Notes under the pieces: generated by a model
Seen by the model: the letters and a program-made list of their open reading frames with translations, nothing else
The model's database searches: none
Told to the model about the DNA's origin: nothing
NCBI GenBank assembly: GCA_030141605.1
Contig: JAQGDQ010002385.1
Span: forward strand, 62,001 to 126,000
Origin: Tubiluchus corallicola
Taxonomy: Eukaryota > Animalia > Priapulida
Direction of reading: 5' to 3'
DNA: 64,000 nucleotides
Program-made: the position numbers and the translations under genes
In this document: piece by piece, positions 2,892-23,824 of the stretch
Position numbering within the stretch: position 1 is the stretch's first letter
Layout: every line of letters begins with the position of its first letter

Positions 2892-3128
2892 ATGCAAAAA
2901 CAAAACAAAGAACAGGCAATCGATAAATTTATCGAAGCACATGCCGATATAAAAGGAATGATGGATAAGCTCCAGGACTTCCATGACAATCACTTCAATG
3001 TTTCTTCTGATGACGTTAAGTGGCCAAATGTAGGCGATGCACACTATATTGCGAAACAACTGGAACAAATTTTACTCTCATCCAACCTCATAAAAATAGA
3101 GGAGGCAAAATACAATGACGAATTCTAA
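2892..3128 (+). CDS. Small phage hypothetical protein (counter-oriented)
   Basis: 78 aa, RBS AAGGA; 'DNHFNVSSDDVKWPNVG' resembles small proteins recalled from this prophage class. Confidence 0.7.
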   Translation: MQKQNKEQAIDKFIEAHADIKGMMDKLQDFHDNHFNVSSDDVKWPNVGDAHYIAKQLEQILLSSNLIKIEEAKYNDEF

Positions 3129-3354
3129 TCCAAAATATCCTGACGTGAACGTCAAACTGGTTGGTGAAGACGGAAATGCCTTCGCCATACTCGGCAGATG
3201 CCAACGTGCAGCACGCAAAGCCGGAGTTCCTTCCGAGGAAATTACCAACTTTATGAATGAAGCACAATCCGGTTCTTATGATGACCTGCTCATAACCTGT
3301 ATAAAATGGTTTAACTGTGATAACGAGACAGAGGAGGATAGCTATGGGATATAA
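3115..3354 (+). CDS. Small phage hypothetical protein (DGNAFAI motif)
   Basis: 79 aa, RBS GAGGAGG; 'VKLVGEDGNAFAILG...SGSYDDLL'. Confidence 0.75.
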   Translation: MTNSNPKYPDVNVKLVGEDGNAFAILGRCQRAARKAGVPSEEITNFMNEAQSGSYDDLLITCIKWFNCDNETEEDSYGI

Positions 3355-3553
3355 TGCATCAAAAAAAGAACAACAAAGATTTACGGCATTTACCAAAGAA
3401 CTTGCCGAACTTTCAAAAAAATACGGTATCGTTCTCCAGGCAATCGGCGGAGTGATGATTGCAGATCCGAATGACGGAAATTTGCAAAATCTCTCCTATA
3501 CAGACGATGCAACAAGCGGTGATTTAGAACCGCTTAACTGGTTTGAGGATTAG
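3344..3553 (+). CDS. Hypothetical protein
   Basis: ATG at 3344 after GAGGAGG; third gene of the counter-oriented cluster. Confidence 0.65.
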   Translation: MGYNASKKEQQRFTAFTKELAELSKKYGIVLQAIGGVMIADPNDGNLQNLSYTDDATSGDLEPLNWFED

Positions 3554-4859
3554 ATTTATCCTGCTCCAATGCAAGCGTCTTGTATGTTTTGCCGCTCTTT
3601 TCATGAACGGCATCTTTCCCTGAATAGTCCTGCCAACGCTTGACGATCACATCCACATATTTTGGATCAAGCTCGATCATGCGGCATTTTCGGTTAACCT
3701 TTTCGCAGGCAATCAAGGTTGATCCTGAACCGCCAAAGCAGTCCAGAACAATATCCTTGGTTTTGCTTGAGTTAAGAATTGCTCTTTCGCACAGCTCTAC
3801 AGGCTTCATGGTCGGATGCAAATCATTCTTAAGCGGTTTATTAAAAAACCAGACATCTCCCTGATTACGAGCTCCACACCAGAAATGATCATTGCCTTTA
3901 GGCCATCCGTAAAGAATACTCTCATATTGACGTTGGTAGTCTGCACGACCAAGCGTAAATGTATTCTTTGCCCAGATGATAAACGTCGACCAATGTCCTC
4001 CTGCATCAATAAATGCTTTCTGCAGGGTATGAAGTTCACTCGAACTCATGCATATATAGCAGGCTCCTTTGGTTACCCTGATTATATTCTGACAGCAGTC
4101 AAAAAGAAACTTTCCAAAATCTTCTCCGAGATTGTCATTAAGGATAGTTCGTTTTCCCGAAGCGTTTGTATAAACCTTACCGCCTTTGGAATTACCTTTG
4201 CTTATGAGGTTATCCTTCATTGTCTCACCGTAATTGACGTTATACGGCGGATCGGTAAAAGTCATGTCCACAAGTTCTTCACCAAGAAGGCTTTTGAAAC
4301 TTTCTTCTTTGCATGAATCAGCGCAAATTACCTTGTGATCACCGAGTATCCAGATATCACCTGACTTGCTGACAGGATTCTCTTCTGCCTGCGGAACTTC
4401 GTTCTCTTGCTCGTCGCTACCTACTTCATAAAGAGATGAAAACAGCTCCTCAAGCTCCTGATCGTTAAATCCGATTACATCAAGATTGTAATCTGAATCC
4501 CTTAAATCAGCCAGCTCCTGAGCAAGGATATTCTCATCCCAACCTGCAAGCTCTGCCAGTTTATTATCGGCAATGATGTATGCTTTTTTCTGCTCAGGCA
4601 TTAAGTGATCCAAAACCACAACAGGAACTTGTGTCATGCCGAGCTTCTTAGCTGCCATTAAACGACCGTGTCCGGCTATAATCCCTTGTTCACTATCAAC
4701 CAGTATAGGATTGGTAAATCCAAATTCTATAATGCTTGAAGCAATCTGAGAAACCTGAGCTTCCGAGTGCGTGCGAGCATTCTTGGTATACGGGATCAGT
4801 TTCTCAACATTTCTCAGCACAATATTTTTCGCCATCGCAGGCGTGTATTGATTATTCAT
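3534..4859 (-). CDS. ParB-like N-domain / N6-adenine or N4-cytosine DNA methyltransferase fusion
   Basis: ParB/Srx motifs (FGFTNPILVD, IIAGHGRL, ADNKL), then DPPY, HPTMKP and DCFGGSGST (beta-class order); start moved to ATG 4859 after AGGA. Confidence 0.92.
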   Translation of the reverse strand: MNNQYTPAMAKNIVLRNVEKLIPYTKNARTHSEAQVSQIASSIIEFGFTNPILVDSEQGIIAGHGRLMAAKKLGMTQVPVVVLDHLMPEQKKAYIIADNKLAELAGWDENILAQELADLRDSDYNLDVIGFNDQELEELFSSLYEVGSDEQENEVPQAEENPVSKSGDIWILGDHKVICADSCKEESFKSLLGEELVDMTFTDPPYNVNYGETMKDNLISKGNSKGGKVYTNASGKRTILNDNLGEDFGKFLFDCCQNIIRVTKGACYICMSSSELHTLQKAFIDAGGHWSTFIIWAKNTFTLGRADYQRQYESILYGWPKGNDHFWCGARNQGDVWFFNKPLKNDLHPTMKPVELCERAILNSSKTKDIVLDCFGGSGSTLIACEKVNRKCRMIELDPKYVDVIVKRWQDYSGKDAVHEKSGKTYKTLALEQDKSNPQTS

Positions 4860-6267
4860 GATTATTTTCCTGTATCTTTTGTGAGATGCATTCCAGTGCC
4901 AAGAGTTCGCCACGCATATGCTGCAACCAACGGCACAACTCCATTCCCACAGGCTCGAATTCTGTCCACCCGATTGGCCAACCCATCAGCCATTCGGTAA
5001 ACTGCGGGTTTAAGGTGAGCGGGTGTTTGCTCCCATTTTTCATAGTCCGAGGGGCTTGGCGGCCAAGTAGTGAGTTGGTTGGAATTTTCTCGCTCTTTGG
5101 ATTCCCATCCTTCCAATCTCTCGCTGTCGGCGTTGCCCAAGATTTTACCGCATGGACTGAGTGATCCCGAAGTTTTAACTTCGCAGCCGTTCCGTCCCTC
5201 CATTCCATCACACCGCCCTCCGCATCTGAGGCATTTGGCGTTCTCCAGTTTTCCGCTGTGTTCTTCAATCCCTTGCCGTATCCCAGAGAGGTGCTGCCCG
5301 GTTCCTGAGCTCTCGGGGTCGGCCAGTTTGCCACTTCCACCTCGAGCCTCTTCTTCGGATTGCCTTCTTTGATTTCCGTGTCGCTCGGACCGTTTGCCGA
5401 AGAGCTTCTCACTGTCGGCCACATCTTTACTGTTCGGGCAAGTCCCAAACTTCGATTGCTTCCCGTTTTTGTTATTTTGCGTAAGTTTCCCGTCTCCGTT
5501 TCTACATATTGGTCGTTGGGTGATATCACTTCTCCCACACTCGCATCGCTTTGTGTTGCCGTCGGCCAGAACTTCTTGCGGGTTTGATAATTCTCTCCCG
5601 CATTCATCTTTTCCAAATCCTGAATCGTATCCGGAAAATCCGCAGGTTGAAGAACAGTCTCTGCAAGAGACGGCGTTCTCAAAACATTTCTGCCGTCCTT
5701 TCTGATCATTTTCTCGGGAGAGCGTGGTTTCCTCACGCTTGCATCCGTTACTGTTGCGGTAGGCCAGAATGAAGAGTCGTTCTCTCTTATGCGGGCTACC
5801 TGTTTCTTCCGCTGTAAACAAGCCTGCCTTAACTTGGTAACCCATTGCTTGTAGGTCATCATGGACTTGTTCAAACCCCAGTCGAAGATGTCCGCCGACA
5901 TTCTCAAAGAAGCAGACTGGTGGCTCGATTTCGCAGACGATGCGTTTGACGTGCGGCCAGAGGTGTCTTGGATCTTTATCACCGAGTTTCTTGCCGGCAA
6001 CACTAAACGGCTGGCAGGGATAGCCTCCAGTGATGCAATCCACTTTTCCACGCCAAGGTTTGCCGTCGAAGGTTTTAAGATCCGTCCAAATAGGTGCATC
6101 ATCCAAGGCTTGCTCTTGCATGCGCGTTGCCAGGACTTCGCACGCAAAGACTTCGATCTCGACATAAGCGATTGTTCGAGCAGTTGGCTCTGCCAGTTTA
6201 AGTCCGAGTTCAAGTCCTCCGACACCTGAGCAGAGGGATAAAATTCTGAAGGTATGTAAATCCACAC
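4852..6267 (-). CDS. Overlapping alternative-frame ('beta') polypeptide of the C5 MTase with W-x-T repeat modules and a motif IX-like segment
   Basis: 471 codons open in a second same-strand frame; six W-x-T modules; LNPQFTEWLMGWPIGWT; GTG at 6267 overlaps the alpha GTG; true start could be internal. Confidence 0.75.
   Translation of the reverse strand: MWIYIPSEFYPSAQVSEDLNSDLNWQSQLLEQSLMSRSKSLRAKSWQRACKSKPWMMHLFGRILKPSTANLGVEKWIASLEAIPASRLVLPARNSVIKIQDTSGRTSNASSAKSSHQSASLRMSADIFDWGLNKSMMTYKQWVTKLRQACLQRKKQVARIRENDSSFWPTATVTDASVRKPRSPEKMIRKDGRNVLRTPSLAETVLQPADFPDTIQDLEKMNAGENYQTRKKFWPTATQSDASVGEVISPNDQYVETETGNLRKITKTGSNRSLGLARTVKMWPTVRSSSANGPSDTEIKEGNPKKRLEVEVANWPTPRAQEPGSTSLGYGKGLKNTAENWRTPNASDAEGGVMEWRDGTAAKLKLRDHSVHAVKSWATPTARDWKDGNPKSEKIPTNSLLGRQAPRTMKNGSKHPLTLNPQFTEWLMGWPIGWTEFEPVGMELCRWLQHMRGELLALECISQKIQENNHE
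4862..6265 (-). CDS. C5-cytosine DNA methyltransferase, catalytic ('alpha') frame
   Basis: Motif I LSLCSGVGG, IV GYPCQPFS, VI ENV, VIII PHKRERLF, X RACGNGVVP; no recognisable motif IX; GTG start at 6265. Confidence 0.9.
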   Translation of the reverse strand: MDLHTFRILSLCSGVGGLELGLKLAEPTARTIAYVEIEVFACEVLATRMQEQALDDAPIWTDLKTFDGKPWRGKVDCITGGYPCQPFSVAGKKLGDKDPRHLWPHVKRIVCEIEPPVCFFENVGGHLRLGFEQVHDDLQAMGYQVKAGLFTAEETGSPHKRERLFILAYRNSNGCKREETTLSRENDQKGRQKCFENAVSCRDCSSTCGFSGYDSGFGKDECGRELSNPQEVLADGNTKRCECGRSDITQRPICRNGDGKLTQNNKNGKQSKFGTCPNSKDVADSEKLFGKRSERHGNQRRQSEEEARGGSGKLADPESSGTGQHLSGIRQGIEEHSGKLENAKCLRCGGRCDGMEGRNGCEVKTSGSLSPCGKILGNADSERLEGWESKERENSNQLTTWPPSPSDYEKWEQTPAHLKPAVYRMADGLANRVDRIRACGNGVVPLVAAYAWRTLGTGMHLTKDTGK

Positions 6268-6290
6268 GTAATCTCTCTTTAAAAACCAAA

Positions 6291-6453
6291 GCGCGTACCC
6301 TGACAAACAAGGTACGCGCCTCTAAATGGTTTATTTTCTGCGGTTATTGATAAATTCGATGCCGGAGTGCGTACCCTTTTTTGAGGCCTGCCGCTAGAGC
6401 TGCCCCGCGGTGCGCGTTACCCTCGATAAAAAGGTCGCCGACAGTACCTGTTG
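6291..6453. promoter_or_regulatory. Putative cos/pac packaging region with repeated GCGTACC boxes
   Basis: GC-rich non-coding gap upstream of the MTase/terminase block; GCGCGTACC 6291-6299, inverted copy 6311-6319, GCGTACCC 6369-6376. Confidence 0.45.
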
Positions 6454-11626: not shown

Positions 11627-11997
11627 TAGAACGGCACCTCCTGATCCTTGGTGTGTTCTTCTTCACACTGCATAAATTCCTGATAGGCGGTGACAACCAC
11701 TTCCACGAGCGTTTCAATTTGTGATCTGCTATACATTGCAAGCGGTTTATTCATGCCGACTTCAGCGACATATTCACCAAGCGGTCTAAGGGCTGACTGC
11801 ATGGCACGTTTTTCTGTATTTGTTGGGTCAATCATGTATCCTCCGGTTGTTTTTAAGTGTTTGGTAAAAATGTTCATGCACCGCATGGAGCAGAAGGCTT
11901 TTGCAGTTTTGTTGCGTCTTGGATCACTGAAACGATAGATCGGATCAGACCACCCAAAACCACGGGCTTCTCGAGAACAAACGGCACATTTTTTCAT
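11626..11997 (-). CDS. DUF6511-like Zn-finger phage protein
   Basis: CAVC...FCSMRC, then IDPT-type domain; ends EVPF. Confidence 0.7.
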   Translation of the reverse strand: MKKCAVCSREARGFGWSDPIYRFSDPRRNKTAKAFCSMRCMNIFTKHLKTTGGYMIDPTNTEKRAMQSALRPLGEYVAEVGMNKPLAMYSRSQIETLVEVVVTAYQEFMQCEEEHTKDQEVPF

Positions 11998-13685
11998 TAG
12001 ACAGCCTCCCTTTGACGCATGCGTTTATCCGCTTCAAACAGCAGGTTTCGGATTGCGTTCTTGTTAAATTGGAATTTCAAAAGAGAGCTGGCGTGGTACT
12101 TGTTCAGCCCTAAATCCATTCGGTATTCACCGGGCAAGAGAGCAAGCTGCTTTTCTGTTGGTGCTTCATCCAGCCAACGCTTGGATTTATGAGCACTTTC
12201 ATCAGTTTCGTAGTTATTGAGAAAGTCATCCGCAGCAGCCAAACAGTTGGCGCGTTCTCCTTGAGCAAGCAAGCGTAAACGGTTGTTGTGATCTGTGTAT
12301 CCGACTGAATACCAATGGCCGTTTAGGAAGAAGAGACCTGCAAAGGCATTAAACCCACATGCCAGAAGGGATGAATCATCACCATACAAGTCACACCAAC
12401 GAAAATTAGAACGCTGAAGTAGATCAATCTCTGACATAATGAAGTTAGAAAGCTCTTCTTTTTCCTCTTCTTCTGTCTCAAACTTATATTCACAGAACGG
12501 ACACTCCATGACCGCAATCGGCACTTCTGCCATACATTCAGGACATTCTTTCGTTGGAGCCTCCGCATCTCGCATGGCGTGTTTGCCGTCCAGATCAACA
12601 TCAACTTCAAGGCAGCCATGTGTTAGGCTGGATGTTCCAAAGTCCAGAACAATGCAGTCTTCCTTAATCACATCAGGATGCACCTCAGGATCAACAACAC
12701 GAAGTCCGCGACCGATCATTTGCACCATGGTGGATTTGTAAGAACTCGGACGCAGTAGAATGACGCAAGAGGTCGGTTGAAAGTCCCAGCCTTCTGTTAG
12801 CACTGCGACATTGACGACAACCTGTGCATCACCTTGTTCATATGATGCGAGAGCCTCTTTACGTTCAGTCTCTGTCATATTGCCGTGAACCATCACAGCG
12901 TTAATGCCGTGAGCTATAAAGCTATCGGTCACGGATTGTGCGTGGGCAACCGTTGAACAGAATACAACGGTCTTACGATCCTTTGCTTTTTCCTGCCAAT
13001 GACTGATCACCGCATCGTTAATCGGAGACTTGTCCATAATCTCTGCAACAGCACCCATATCAAAGTCACTGGCAATACGGCGAACCTTTTTAAGATCATC
13101 CTGAACACCTACATCAATAATAAAGGTACGAGGTTTTACAAGGTGACCTGAGGCAATCAGCTCACTGATTTGTATTTGATCTGCAAGATTATTAAAGACA
13201 GGTCGCAAGCCTTTCTTATCACCTCGGTTCGGCGTTGCCGTAACCCCGTAAATCATCGTTTTAGGATTATTACGGCGTGCCTGACCGATAATGCGAAGAT
13301 AGCTGTTTGCAACAGCATGATGGGCTTCATCAATAACCAGAAGATCAACAGTAGGCATGGCCTCTATGTTTCCCTCACGACAAAGGGTCTGCACCATGGC
13401 AAAGGTTGCCTGACCGCTCCAGTCCTTAATACGACTGTCAAAAACAGAAGTGCTGATCTCGGGATTAACACGGGAAAACTTCTCCTGATTTTGCACCGTT
13501 AACTCATCACGGTGAGCAAGGATAAGAGCTTTTCCTTTTGTATCGTTAATCATCTGCCCGGCAACGCTTGAAAACATCACAGTCTTGCCGGCACCCGTCG
13601 GGGCGACGGCAAGTGTGTTGCGATGCTTTTTGAGTGCCTTGCAACTGAGATCAACAAATGTTTTTTGTCTCGGTCTTAATCGCAT
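11997..13685 (-). CDS. SF2 DEAH-box helicase
   Basis: PTGAGKT, DEAHH, TAT, QMIGRGLR; CPEC/CPFC Zn finger. Confidence 0.93.
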   Translation of the reverse strand: MRLRPRQKTFVDLSCKALKKHRNTLAVAPTGAGKTVMFSSVAGQMINDTKGKALILAHRDELTVQNQEKFSRVNPEISTSVFDSRIKDWSGQATFAMVQTLCREGNIEAMPTVDLLVIDEAHHAVANSYLRIIGQARRNNPKTMIYGVTATPNRGDKKGLRPVFNNLADQIQISELIASGHLVKPRTFIIDVGVQDDLKKVRRIASDFDMGAVAEIMDKSPINDAVISHWQEKAKDRKTVVFCSTVAHAQSVTDSFIAHGINAVMVHGNMTETERKEALASYEQGDAQVVVNVAVLTEGWDFQPTSCVILLRPSSYKSTMVQMIGRGLRVVDPEVHPDVIKEDCIVLDFGTSSLTHGCLEVDVDLDGKHAMRDAEAPTKECPECMAEVPIAVMECPFCEYKFETEEEEKEELSNFIMSEIDLLQRSNFRWCDLYGDDSSLLACGFNAFAGLFFLNGHWYSVGYTDHNNRLRLLAQGERANCLAAADDFLNNYETDESAHKSKRWLDEAPTEKQLALLPGEYRMDLGLNKYHASSLLKFQFNKNAIRNLLFEADKRMRQREAV

Positions 13686-20071: not shown

Positions 20072-20489
20072 GAGTATTATCAGGCAGGTAATTGACCTGC
20101 GAAACAAATCATCGGCTGAGCTTAGGGAAATGTACGAAGTGCTGTTTTCCGAGGCTCCGCCTTACAATTCAACAAAAGAACATCTAAGACCAAAACTCGC
20201 ATATCGCATGCAGGAATTGGCTCTGGGAGGAATAAGTGCGGACACGACGGATAAGCTGGAAAGGATGGCAAACGGAGCCACGCCTGCAAGCGTGAGATCA
20301 CACACAGATTTATTGCCCGGCACAAAGGTCTGCAGAGAATGGAACGGCGTGATGCATGAAGTGGAGGTAAAGAAAAACTGCTTTGAGTATCAGGGCAAGA
20401 GTTACCGAAGCCTGTCGGCTGTAGCTCGTCAAATTACAGGAACAAGATGGAACGGACCGAAGTTCTTCAAATTAAGAAGGAGCATCTAA
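20064..20489 (+). CDS. DUF2924 family protein
   Basis: LAYRMQELALGG...PGTKVCREWNG..HEV...YRSLSAVARQITGTRWNGPKFF. Confidence 0.9.
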   Translation: MNKSIIRQVIDLRNKSSAELREMYEVLFSEAPPYNSTKEHLRPKLAYRMQELALGGISADTTDKLERMANGATPASVRSHTDLLPGTKVCREWNGVMHEVEVKKNCFEYQGKSYRSLSAVARQITGTRWNGPKFFKLRRSI

Positions 20490-21811
20490 TGATAGACACA
20501 TTAAAAAACAAACAAAAAATACGCTGTGCCATTTACACACGAAAATCCTCTGAGGAAGGACTGGAGCAGGAATTCAACTCACTGGATGCACAACGTTTGG
20601 CAGCAGAAAGCTACATCGCCAGCCAACAGCATGAAGGCTGGGTATTGGCTCCCGGCAATTATGATGACGGAGGCTTCTCAGGTGGGAATATGGAACGCCC
20701 GGGATTAAAGCGTCTCTTTGCAGACATCAAGGAAGGCAAGATTGATTGTATCGTCGTTTATAAGATTGACCGATTAACACGATCCTTGGTGGACTTTTCG
20801 AAGATTATAGAATTGTTTGATGAGCATAATGTTAGCTTTGTCAGTGTCACTCAATCATTCAACACATCCAATTCAATGGGGAGACTTATGCTGAATGTGC
20901 TTTTATCCTTTGCACAATATGAACGCGAGCTTACAGGGGAGCGTATTCGGGATAAGGTTGAAGCCTCAAAGAAACAAGGTATGTGGATGGGAGGAACACC
21001 TCCGCTTGGGTATAGCTGTGAAGATAAAAAACTAAGAATAATGGAGGAGGAAGCAAAACTTGTTCGCATTATCTATCAAAGATTTATAGAAACCGGTTCT
21101 GTGACAACGGTTGCAAGGGAAATGAACAAGCAAGGTTTTCATACGAAAAGCTGGATATCAAAAACCGGCAAGCTTCACGGAGGCGGTAAGTTTGATAAGA
21201 AAAACATCCAACGTATTCTTGAAAACCCGATCTATGCCGGAAAGATTAAGCATAAAGAGAAAGTCTACGAGGGGCAGCACAAAGAAATCATCAGCGAAAA
21301 GATATGGCAGAAAGCTCAGGACACTTTTAAACGCTATGACCGACCTGTAGGGGTTGGTGTGCGTGTCAGTAGCATTCCTTTACTTAAAGGCGTGATGACT
21401 TGTGGGGAATGCGGTGGACGGATGATACCGACATACACAAACAAAAAGGGCAAGCGATACCGCTATTACATCTGTGAACGTAAGCATAAAGGCAGGAACG
21501 ATAACTGCTCGGTTGGAAGACTATCAGCCGGCGAGATTGAGAACCTTGTTGTGCAACACATTACCCAAATTCTAAAGAAGCCTGAAATCATCGTGCAGAC
21601 AATAACAGCAGCGGCAGGCAAGGTTCCTGAAATGGAAGTCGTAGAAGCTCTCAAATCAATAGAGGTGGTCTGGGAGGAGTTATTCCCGATCGAGCAAGAA
21701 AGGATTGTTAAGCTACTCATCAAAGAAGTTGTGGTGACAAAAGACGGTCTGGACATCAGGATTTTTAAAGACGGATTAAACACACTCAGTCAAGAATTGG
21801 AGGCAGTATAA
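20489..21811 (+). CDS. Large serine recombinase (integrase)
   Basis: CAIYTRKS catalytic Ser, DRLTRS, recombinase domain, CGECG Zn ribbon; TAATG overlap at 20489. Confidence 0.93.
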   Translation: MIDTLKNKQKIRCAIYTRKSSEEGLEQEFNSLDAQRLAAESYIASQQHEGWVLAPGNYDDGGFSGGNMERPGLKRLFADIKEGKIDCIVVYKIDRLTRSLVDFSKIIELFDEHNVSFVSVTQSFNTSNSMGRLMLNVLLSFAQYERELTGERIRDKVEASKKQGMWMGGTPPLGYSCEDKKLRIMEEEAKLVRIIYQRFIETGSVTTVAREMNKQGFHTKSWISKTGKLHGGGKFDKKNIQRILENPIYAGKIKHKEKVYEGQHKEIISEKIWQKAQDTFKRYDRPVGVGVRVSSIPLLKGVMTCGECGGRMIPTYTNKKGKRYRYYICERKHKGRNDNCSVGRLSAGEIENLVVQHITQILKKPEIIVQTITAAAGKVPEMEVVEALKSIEVVWEELFPIEQERIVKLLIKEVVVTKDGLDIRIFKDGLNTLSQELEAV

Positions 21812-22224
21812 TGGAAAACTTGAAAATTAGGGATGATCAAACGCTAAGCGTATTTGTACCGATGGAGATTAAAAAGAAAGGCGGAGCAGCTCAGATTATC
21901 CTGCCGAAAAATATTGAGGGCGGTTCGGAAGTCGGCGGTCGTGTCTACGATCCTAAAATGATGACAGCCTTTGCCAAGGCTTATAAATGGAAGAGAATGC
22001 TTAAAACAGGCAGGGTGAGAAGCCTTGCAGATATTTGTAAAAAGGAGAATATCAGCACATCATATTCCAGCCGAATTTACCGCCTTAACTTTGTGGCACC
22101 TCAAATCGTAGAAGCCATTATTAACGGCACACAGCCACGCACACTGCGTCTTCAAGACTTCATGGGAAAACTCATCCCAGACCTATGGGAAGAACAGCTG
22201 GAAGCCTTTGGGTTTAAATCATAA
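21811..22224 (+). CDS. Recombinase-associated HTH protein
   Basis: Overlaps the recombinase stop; 'SYSSRIYRLNFVAPQIVEAIING.QP...P.LWEEQ'. Confidence 0.7.
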   Translation: MENLKIRDDQTLSVFVPMEIKKKGGAAQIILPKNIEGGSEVGGRVYDPKMMTAFAKAYKWKRMLKTGRVRSLADICKKENISTSYSSRIYRLNFVAPQIVEAIINGTQPRTLRLQDFMGKLIPDLWEEQLEAFGFKS

Positions 22225-22260
22225 GACTTCCCAATCTTCTACATCACCTTTAATAATCTT

Positions 22261-23000
22261 GGGTCAAGACAAGTTGGTTGAAAATTAGAGGCAATTAACC
22301 TATTGTTCTGGCTATGAAAAATAAATATATTCACCGTTCAAGAATCACAGAGGCTAAATTCAGAGAAATTATCAGGCTATTTTCTCTTGATCTTTCTGCA
22401 CAACAAACCGCTCTCATTTCTCAAATCTCTCGCAACACCATCAATGTAATCTTCCTTTCTCTTCGAAAAAGAATTGCTCAAATCTGCGAGAAAGAATCAA
22501 TTTTCTCTTCAGGGGAAATTGAAGTCGATGAATCCTATTTTGGCCCAAGGCGCGTAAGAGGCGTTCCAGGTCGAGGAGCAGGAGAAAAGACAGTTGTTTT
22601 TGGGCTCAAGAAGAGAAATGGAAAAGTTTATACTCAGATTGTTAAAAAGGCTTCAAAGAAAGAGATACTGCCGATTATAGAAAAGAATGTGAAGAAGGAA
22701 TCTACGATTTATAGCGATGGTTGGCGGATTTATGATGGGCTTGTGAATATGGGGTATAAGAAACATTATCGTGTGTATCATGGTGTTGGAGAATTTGTTC
22801 GTGGGAAGGCTCATATAAATGGGATTGAGAGCTTTTGGGGGACGGCGAAAACCCGCTTAACAAAAGTGAGAGGGATAAAGAAGAAAATGTTTTACTTGCA
22901 TCTGAAGGAATGTGAGTTTAGATTTAATTATAGAGATAAAAATCTCTATCAAGTTCTGCTCAGAGAACTACGAAATAAACCCCTCAGCTTGTCTTGACCC
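22261..23000 (+). mobile_element. IS1595-family insertion sequence, 740 bp
   Basis: TIRs GGGTCAAGACAAG(T/C)TG at both ends; 8-bp target duplication ATAATCTT at 22253-22260 and 23001-23008. Confidence 0.95.
22314..22997 (+). CDS. IS1595-family (IS1016-like) transposase
   Basis: EVDESYFG, GRGA, YSDGW, HINGIESFW, LKECEFRFN. Confidence 0.93.
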   Translation: MKNKYIHRSRITEAKFREIIRLFSLDLSAQQTALISQISRNTINVIFLSLRKRIAQICEKESIFSSGEIEVDESYFGPRRVRGVPGRGAGEKTVVFGLKKRNGKVYTQIVKKASKKEILPIIEKNVKKESTIYSDGWRIYDGLVNMGYKKHYRVYHGVGEFVRGKAHINGIESFWGTAKTRLTKVRGIKKKMFYLHLKECEFRFNYRDKNLYQVLLRELRNKPLSLS

Positions 23001-23733
23001 ATAATCTTAAACAAGGGATGTGGCTCTACATCCTTTAGATTTTGAAGTTTAAGAAAAAGCGCATGATCTCTTTTCTCTGCTTTTTTCAAAAAATGCTGCC
23101 ATTCATAATCAATTTGCCCTGAGTTTACTTTGATAGGATCAAGGACAATCTTATCATGCGATATTTTCTCTCGATTAAAGTTATAGCCTCGTTTGTATGC
23201 CTCATCACAAACATCGTGCAGATAGTTAGAAATTGCATTAACAGGGCTTGGGTGAGCCTTAAATCTGGTTAATTGGGGGTGATTTTTATAACCTTTGGTA
23301 TTGCCATGAAGAACGTTTTGGGCAAGTAAAGTTTCTCGCCATAAAGCGACCAATCCTTTTGCATCTAAATACTGTGGGTGAATACTCCAAATACGCATAA
23401 TAATTAAATGATACGCTTAACTTCCTGAAAACTCAAACAATTTCATTTCCCCCGTGAAGTTTACAAGAACCAGTCTCTTGCCACTAAAACCGTTTCGAAC
23501 TCTCCGCCTGAAAGCCCCAGTTTATAAGGGGTTTTATTTTTACACAAAGGGGACATGCCCAGAGAAACAGAGACCATTTGCCGGAGATTTAAGCATAAAA
23601 TACCTAAATATCATGAGGTAAAAGGTGCCTTGAATGGGATTGCCTATCTCTAAAAACCCCACAAACACTGGGCTTTTGGTGGCTAGCTTAACGGCAGATA
23701 ATGAAGTCAGAGAAAAGTTAGAAAATGGTAAAC

Positions 23734-23824
23734 TGGCGGAGAGAGAGGGATTCGAACCCTCGGTGGAGGCTAGCCCCACAACGGTTTTCGAGACCGCCCC
23801 GTTCAACCACTCCGGCATCCCTCC
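23734..23824 (-). tRNA. tRNA-Ser(CGA)
   Basis: GGAGGGA/TCTCTCC acceptor stem, anticodon loop CTCGAAA, long variable arm, GGTTCGAATCC, encoded CCA. Confidence 0.96.

Follow-up and report, generated by a model that had tools for sequence, protein, structure and literature searches.

The window analysed here, a stretch of 64,000 nucleotides (nt) on contig JAQGDQ010002385.1 of the Tubiluchus corallicola assembly GCA_030141605.1 (positions 62,001 to 126,000; coordinates below are those of the window), contains a prophage locus in which two frames of the same DNA carry complementary parts of a cytosine-C5 methyltransferase. On the minus strand, the alpha frame (467 amino acids, aa) is stop-free from 6265 to 4862 and has motifs I-VIII as well as motif X; the beta frame (471 aa), which is +1 relative to alpha, is stop-free from 6267 to 4852 and has motif IX preceded by an array of W-x-T-P cassettes. 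The third frame has 31 stops across this span. We consider it very probable that two chains are made from the two frames, and hold almost as firmly that they would form a heterodimeric C5 methylase. With more reserve, we also favour a joint reading in which this orphan prophage locus would give rise to one heterodimeric cytosine-C5 methyltransferase with the cassettes as its recognition modules.

Complementary methyltransferase motifs in two frames

The two stop-free same-strand frames 2 nt apart, of 467 and 471 codons, were first pointed out from the nucleotide letters alone, and this original prediction was borne out by re-coding. When alpha was re-coded with synonymous codons, none of 5000 trials gave an open +1 frame (mean 19.7 stops), and none of 3000 re-codings of the beta array preserved an open alpha. 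The two starts are overlapping GTG codons 2 nt apart (GTGTG), and beta is longer than alpha at both ends, its 3' end lying 10 nt beyond that of alpha.

The C5 signature of alpha is intact, with motif I LSLCSGVGG (6241-6215), motif IV GGYPCQPFS containing PC (6028-6002), motif VI ENV (5905-5897) and motif VIII HKRERLF containing RxR (5791-5771), and alpha also has motif II VEIE (6163-6152) and motif X RVDRIRACGNGVVP (4972-4931). These coordinates agree with the motif set predicted for alpha (I, IV, VI, VIII and X, with IX elsewhere), and motif IX LNPQFTEWLMGWPIGWT lies in beta at exactly the position proposed for it, 5013-4963. PF00145 matched alpha over residues 6-185 only, and alpha also matched phrog_363. 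Beta matched phrog_1008 (E 2.6e-32); no family of Pfam or NCBIfam matched it, and phmmer of beta against solved structures gave 0 matches. Further analysis of eight relatives in which the motif IX of beta runs straight into motif X yielded a profile that aligned to plant DRM2 structures (E 9e-5). We read the aligned stretch as probably motifs IX-X, and the putative assignment of motif IX in beta is supported. A Pfam C5 match at profile positions 277-322 was weak and appeared in one of those eight relatives (E 0.16). A protein-atlas search returned three viral clusters at 0.96, with a recognition score of 1538 (weak), and neither the exact alpha protein nor the exact beta protein was present in a collection of 15 billion sequences.

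Both frames are kept open in a large family

We gathered 386 loci (window included), of which 381 have the alpha N-terminal domain, 307 are complete (motif IX and motif X matches, away from a contig edge) and 213 remain after thinning at 95% identity. Using alpha, 270 loci were found, and 182 of these score at least 200 bits on a profile of alpha motifs I-VIII built from family members, a level here called close family; beta was not used in the openness count, and all the statistics are to be read with the shared descent of the loci in mind. The +1 frame is open across motifs I-VIII in 181 of these 182 loci, unfiltered, compared with 14 of 182 for the third frame, and the lone exception (L024) is broken in both frames. 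Among complete loci thinned to below 95% identity, the +1 frame is open in 123/123 against 0.4 expected, and alpha is open through the beta array in 165/170 against 10 expected. Openness in homologues was a check proposed along with the original prediction, and on it beta is rarely interrupted. Of 67 related loci scoring below 150 bits, only 11 have an open +1 frame. Both frames are kept in independent contigs with a GC content of 45-72%. A match to motif IX was absent in ten high-scoring loci despite ample downstream DNA.

A profile of beta matched 35,571 clusters at 50% identity (E up to 1e-10), many of which are probably partial matches, and motif IX patterns were found in ~3,200 viral stretches. 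The host titles of relatives cover Pseudomonadota, Bacillota, Actinomycetota, Bacteroidota and others. The phage/prophage family to which the locus belongs is very large, and the locus is no rarity. To our knowledge, bacteria and phages very seldom have 1.4-kb overlaps on one strand in which both frames are under selection.

Purifying selection changes frame along the locus

Selection was estimated as the ratio of nonsynonymous to synonymous differences (pN/pS) from Nei-Gojobori counts in 42 disjoint pairs of equal-length relatives, with bootstrap confidence intervals (CIs); the ratios are simple counts, and those of overlapping frames are mutually non-independent, a point against them that is taken up below. 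Across motifs I-VIII, pN/pS was 0.18 for alpha (CI 0.16-0.20), 1.55 for beta and 2.57 for the third frame, and across the array it was 2.25 for alpha and 0.14 for beta (0.11-0.16). Both frames are below 1 in the last 25 codons before motif IX (alpha 0.75, beta 0.63). The values for motif IX are 0.72 for alpha and 0.18 for beta, those for motif X are 0.06 and 1.15, and the third frame ranges from 1.2 to 14.9 across regions. Purifying selection passes from alpha in motifs I-VIII to beta in the middle and back to alpha in motif X, so each chain is a passenger where the other works, though both stay open. The frame-specific purifying selection for which a search had been proposed is thus present in homologues.

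Cassettes of beta are exchanged among relatives

In the window, six W-x-T-P units of six different types lie between the beta leader and motif IX (Table 1), and the array occupies the place between motifs VIII and IX that is the site of the variable region in C5 methyltransferases. The ordered repeats that had been noticed in beta are indeed repeated units, but they are distinct cassette types that have been shuffled. Across 201 arrays we counted 604 cassettes (median 35 aa, 0-7 per locus) falling into 36 clusters of at least three, with the consensus W-P-T-P-x-A-x-D and loops rich in G, S, R and K. Cassette number follows alpha length (rho 0.85). Repetition of a type within an array was seen in 2/173, 61 different arrays were found among 99 fully typed loci, and 19 of 156 type pairs occur in both orders. 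The array of the window is present in none of its ten nearest relatives (74-84% alpha identity). Moreover, contigs of three other sequencing runs lack a net 198 nt at cassette 1, which is its exact length, and a 36-nt repeat (78% identical, 198-nt spacing) is found at the starts of cassettes 1 and 2; this repeat could mediate the gain or loss of cassette 1. Judging from these comparisons, cassettes are gained, lost and reordered in frame among relatives.

Motif layouts among relatives

Four layouts were found. Layout A is that of the window, with motifs I-VIII and X on alpha and the cassettes and motif IX on beta, which starts either at the alpha start or 13-63 codons in (mostly near 50). In layout B (L066, L101, L130, L276 and L360), beta has the cassettes, IX and X. 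In layout C (five loci; L265, L269, L273, L279 and L378), alpha has I-VIII, IX and X, and the cassettes lie in a nested +1 open reading frame (ORF) of 148-339 codons. We considered the layout C loci as single-chain methylases and rejected this, as the nested cassette ORF is retained. In annotation such genes would pass as ordinary, and their putative recognition chain would be overlooked. In layout D (five loci; L012, L020, L068, L096 and L314), alpha ends after motif VIII, the linker has at least one further stop, and there is an intact separate motif-X ORF, which in the printed sequence of L096 is preceded by GAGGAGG. In all four layouts the cassettes are in the +1 frame, and L271 shows a frame change inside the array. 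What is constant in beta across layouts is the cassettes, not motif IX.

Minimal loci have a single cassette and a short alpha linker. In L360, beta has extra WP(T/S)P cassettes between IX and X, which means that an array can reach downstream of IX. A FastTree phylogeny of alpha motifs I-VIII had no trustworthy root, with the intended outgroup inside the tree on a long branch, and no event order is claimed. The plasmid locus L386, a candidate for an M.EcoHK31I-like enzyme, was rejected as an ordinary single-chain methylase adjoining a restriction enzyme.

Cassettes as candidate specificity modules

We lean towards the cassettes being separate specificity modules. They are read as a recognition domain chiefly because the fold of a layout C alpha resembles that of M.HhaI and is unstructured at the place of the recognition domain: the model of one such alpha matched M.HhaI (TMq 0.64), and its residues 170-216 had per-residue confidence (pLDDT) below 50, suggesting an alpha without a confidently folded recognition domain.

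Several observations weigh against this reading or against the scheme of which it is part. The published TL consensus, (YFW)X(RK)X5P(STCA)PT(ILV)(TASV) at 10-50 aa from motif IX (PMC2413257, in its accessible part), is matched only at PT, the following residue being P in 82% of cassettes and not I, L or V. The last cassette lies 10-50 aa from motif IX in only 51% of the 201 loci (42 aa in the window). The exchange unit seems to start at W-x-T, with a pre-W identity of 0.14 where the predecessor is different, and this start is at odds with TL because the same source, as far as its text is accessible, has recognition residues on either side of TL. A profile of 361 cassette junctions found nothing significant in SPbeta MtbP and a plasmid C5 methylase, and its best stretch on MtbP was PTLTT at -3.8 bits. 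Beta modelled alone had a mean pLDDT of 57 and a predicted template-modelling score (pTM) of 0.28; when this low-confidence model was searched against 48,161 chains for similar folds, the matches reached at most Z 4.1 and all fell on the C-terminal helix, a result that is uninformative on the fold. In the beta leader, selection at the level of residues is weak (pN/pS 1.55; of 76 testable columns, 3 are strongly fixed), the non-independence of overlapping ratios applies throughout, and the alpha linker is broken in 5 of 170 loci, so full-length alpha is not universal. Finally, the accessible descriptions of M.EcoHK31I place its predicted target-recognition domain (TRD) on alpha, whereas here the middle of alpha is a passenger (pN/pS 2.25).

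Some of these points would suit a heterodimer with one or no particular specificity, in which the cassettes jointly form a DNA-binding or processivity arm or a protein docking surface. The poor fit to the full TL consensus, the lack of a significant match to the two tested variable regions and the position of the predicted TRD in M.EcoHK31I all speak for such an arm, and docking is hinted at by the clamp-binding-like motif that part of the beta leaders carry. We regard this explanation as possible but rather unlikely. Types are almost never repeated within an array and each is conserved under purifying selection, a pattern that distinct functions fit better than bulk affinity, and in one-cassette loci with a short alpha linker the cassette is left as the obvious recognition element.

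Beta leaders of relatives carry QL[SDTE][LI]F at alpha-codon ~101-106 in the full layout or ~59-67 in the partial layout. We take this sequence to be a sliding-clamp-binding-like motif. It was counted in 13 of 173 full-layout, 10 of 32 partial-layout and 1 of 5 layout C loci, where ~0 would be expected, and the beta of the window is without it. Where present, it may serve to hold some of these methylases at the replication fork.

Start region, frame junctions and number of chains

Of 163 fully overlapped loci, 133 have W-[LI]-[YF]-[LI]-P at the N-terminus of beta, and in 130 of them a start codon lies 1-3 codons ahead. In 127 of these 130, alpha starts at +2, -4 or +5 nt relative to the beta start, and Shine-Dalgarno-like words are present 5' of the start in 61/130 compared with 18/130 at a control position. 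W2 and P6 of beta are 97% conserved (147 rows), although they lie anywhere from -23 to +1 codons relative to alpha motif I.

A single polypeptide could in principle be made through two programmed frameshifts, running from alpha I-VIII into the beta array and IX and then back into alpha X. The DNA does have the canonical order of motifs I-VIII, variable region, IX and X, and selection changes frame at those very borders. However, around motif IX the same stretch of DNA encodes conserved residues in both frames, beta W434/T435 (88%) and alpha R432 (93%) occupying overlapping codons, and this disfavours a single frameshifted chain. The distance from beta G-x-P to alpha GN is 9 codons in 111 of 154 loci, which is too short for one polypeptide when compared with the 18-22 residues between IX and X in three same-chain examples (counted by eye). 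In addition, of 165 loci only 8 and 14 have slippery X-XXY-YYZ heptamers near the respective frame junctions, and neither the conserved start motif of beta nor the openness of the unused halves would be explained. We consider this explanation very improbable.

Equally poor prospects are given to three chains, in which a short motif-X peptide would be initiated within the alpha frame, from a start codon that overlaps the W codon of a cassette, and full-length alpha would be optional. The five layout D loci do keep a motif-X ORF, with GAGGAGG in L096, and GTG and TTG of the alpha frame overlap cassettes 3 and 6 of the window locus. Nevertheless, the openness of the alpha linker in 165 of 170 loci, against 10 expected, indicates that full-length alpha is selected in most loci, the window included, and the layout D loci may be decaying copies. 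That the second frame is an untranslated by-product of the codon pattern of alpha, or an assembly artefact, is scarcely credible in view of the re-coding results, the purifying selection on the beta array and motif IX, the rarity of the open frame below 150 bits and its retention in independent contigs of diverse GC content.

Comparison with known methyltransferases

M.EcoHK31I, which recognizes YGGCCR, has motifs I-VIII and X on alpha and motif IX on a beta encoded in an alternate frame; this beta is the smaller chain, lies wholly inside alpha, and its first 42 residues are dispensable (accessible parts of PMC2836561 and PMC3404938). Compared by description and not by sequence, the window locus is alike in having I-VIII and X on alpha and IX on beta in different frames of one locus. 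It differs in that beta is as long as alpha, shares a common start with it, extends 10 nt beyond it and contains a variable cassette array. In contrast to M.EcoHK31I, moreover, it lies in a prophage with no restriction enzyme seen alongside. M.AquI (CYCGRG) also has two chains, the smaller of which has part of the variable region together with IX and X (PMC3404938, likewise in part). Layout B relatives have IX and X on beta in the same way, whereas the window locus has motif X on alpha, and its two genes overlap over their whole length.

Temperate phages of Bacillus have arrayed TRDs in single-polypeptide multispecific C5 methyltransferases (PMC12707154, in its accessible part). These are orphan phage enzymes in which motifs VIII and IX are separated by a row of short modules that can be exchanged and that each have a conserved PT, and the window locus resembles them in all these respects and likely also in an anti-restriction role. 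Unlike them, it has its array on a second chain in an overlapping frame, and no significant match to MtbP was found. The locus is therefore a variant, not a member, of either type, since it fails a defining feature of each. In layout it follows M.EcoHK31I, and in function it is likely to follow the Bacillus phage arrays.

Both phrog_363 (alpha) and phrog_1008 (beta) are already phage families labelled 'DNA methyltransferase', named separately and with no link as two frames of one locus in the scan output. No description of this phage family as dual-coded was found in the full-text literature, whose coverage is incomplete, so that absence from print is not established; the accessible parts of PMC6070908, PMC3025963 and PMC3706429 contain none.

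Proposed mechanism and implications

From the sequence patterns above we infer that beta is translated, that the chains associate and that they have methylase activity. In the proposed scheme, both chains would be translated from one initiation region and would assemble like the chains of M.EcoHK31I. Each W-x-T-P cassette would be a TL-like DNA-recognition module, used singly as in the enzymes of Bacillus temperate phages, and the enzyme would methylate several target sequences, presumably shielding the phage DNA from host restriction at induction. The full overlap might be explained by a long beta leader that allows sharing of the alpha start and by an alpha linker that must stay open to reach motif X.

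Extended to the family, this scheme would mean tens of thousands of phage and prophage genes for a multispecific methylase with its specificity chain in a second frame, dozens of ~35-residue cassettes of a W-P-T-P kind that is as yet undescribed, exchanged in frame with a double no-stop constraint, and motifs IX and X mobile among two or three chains, a generalization for which we see the balance as even. If true, phages would have a large hidden code of anti-restriction specificities, lost wherever a single frame is annotated. The expectation that annotation drops one frame held in part: the records of phages C75C1 and Yong-M2-251 list alpha only, but that of the Paenibacillus larvae phage Bloom lists both. 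One-frame records show either a methylase without motif IX and recognition domain or a 'hypothetical protein', and because they annotate one frame, the completeness and specificity of the enzyme are misread. If the cassettes are specificity modules, methylomes would be mappable by cassette, the restriction systems that a phage evades would be predictable, and a modular toolkit of small DNA-recognition units would be at hand. The family also contains thousands of natural replicates in which the maintenance of dual-coded genes could be studied.

Genomic context of the locus

The region 4700-6400 was recovered in a single contig of one sequencing run with zero differences, although this run is possibly the source of the DNA and not independent; no RNA run was listed among those containing the region. 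The prophage, at the left of the window, has the gpA terminase gene at 333-2213 and replication genes upstream of the locus. Directly 3' of the locus is a ParB-N6/N4 methyltransferase gene (Table 1), which is likely translationally coupled to it. Of the 29 closest loci 26 have this neighbour, and of 172 loci overall 61 do. The alpha stop, the beta stop and the ATG of this gene all fall inside 13 nt (4852-4864), with three frames in use. No restriction-enzyme family of Pfam was found among the scanned neighbours, and a PF04851 match at 11997-13685, considered as a restriction enzyme, was rejected as belonging to a helicase.

Table 1 Features of the dual-coded locus and its immediate surroundings in the window
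Feature	Position	Strand	Description
Alpha chain, 467 aa	4862..6265	-	Motifs I-VIII ~9-168, passenger linker ~170-395, conserved WPP/W/P segment 400-420, motif X 432-445
Beta chain, 471 aa, +1 frame	4852..6267	-	Leader 1-167, six-cassette array 168-418, motif IX 419-435, predicted C-terminal helix 441-469
Shared start region	6250..6280	-	Purine-rich AAAGAGAG, then GTGTG: beta GTG 6267, alpha GTG 6265; beta N-terminal W-[LI]-[YF]-[LI]-P
Beta cassette 1	5569..5766	-	Type 12, 66 aa, begins WPTAT
Beta cassette 2	5422..5568	-	Type 18, 49 aa, begins WPTAT
Beta cassette 3	5326..5421	-	Type 8, 32 aa, begins WPTVR
Beta cassette 4	5248..5325	-	Type 4, 26 aa, begins WPTPR
Beta cassette 5	5140..5247	-	Type 16, 36 aa, begins WRTPN
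Beta cassette 6	5014..5139	-	Type 0 (commonest type), begins WATPT, runs into motif IX
Beta motif IX	4963..5013	-	Last codons overlap alpha pre-motif-X stretch (4972-4931)
Terminator-like hairpin	6288..6322	-	Strong, directly 5' of shared start; folding z = -4.4 for 6230-6345
ParB-N6/N4 methyltransferase	3534..4859	-	3' neighbour, third frame; ATG 2 nt past alpha stop, overlaps last beta codons

On the other side of the ParB-N6/N4 methyltransferase gene, three small ORFs (78, 79 and 78 aa) lie at 2892-3553 on the plus strand between it and the terminase genes, with zero Pfam matches at 1e-4. Farther to the right in the window are a serine recombinase (20447-21811) and a tRNA-Ser (23734-23824), followed by host housekeeping genes; the serine recombinase, an IS1595-family transposase and the tRNA-Ser(CGA) in 20447-23824 likely mark the prophage boundary. 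Between gpZ and the methylase start, the minus strand of 6288-6380 contains the hairpin and repeated GCGTACC-like words, a region that could be a terminator or a packaging-related site. In L009, L013, L022 and L032, two or three GGTGCG(T/C/G)ACC-like repeats are present 5' of the start.

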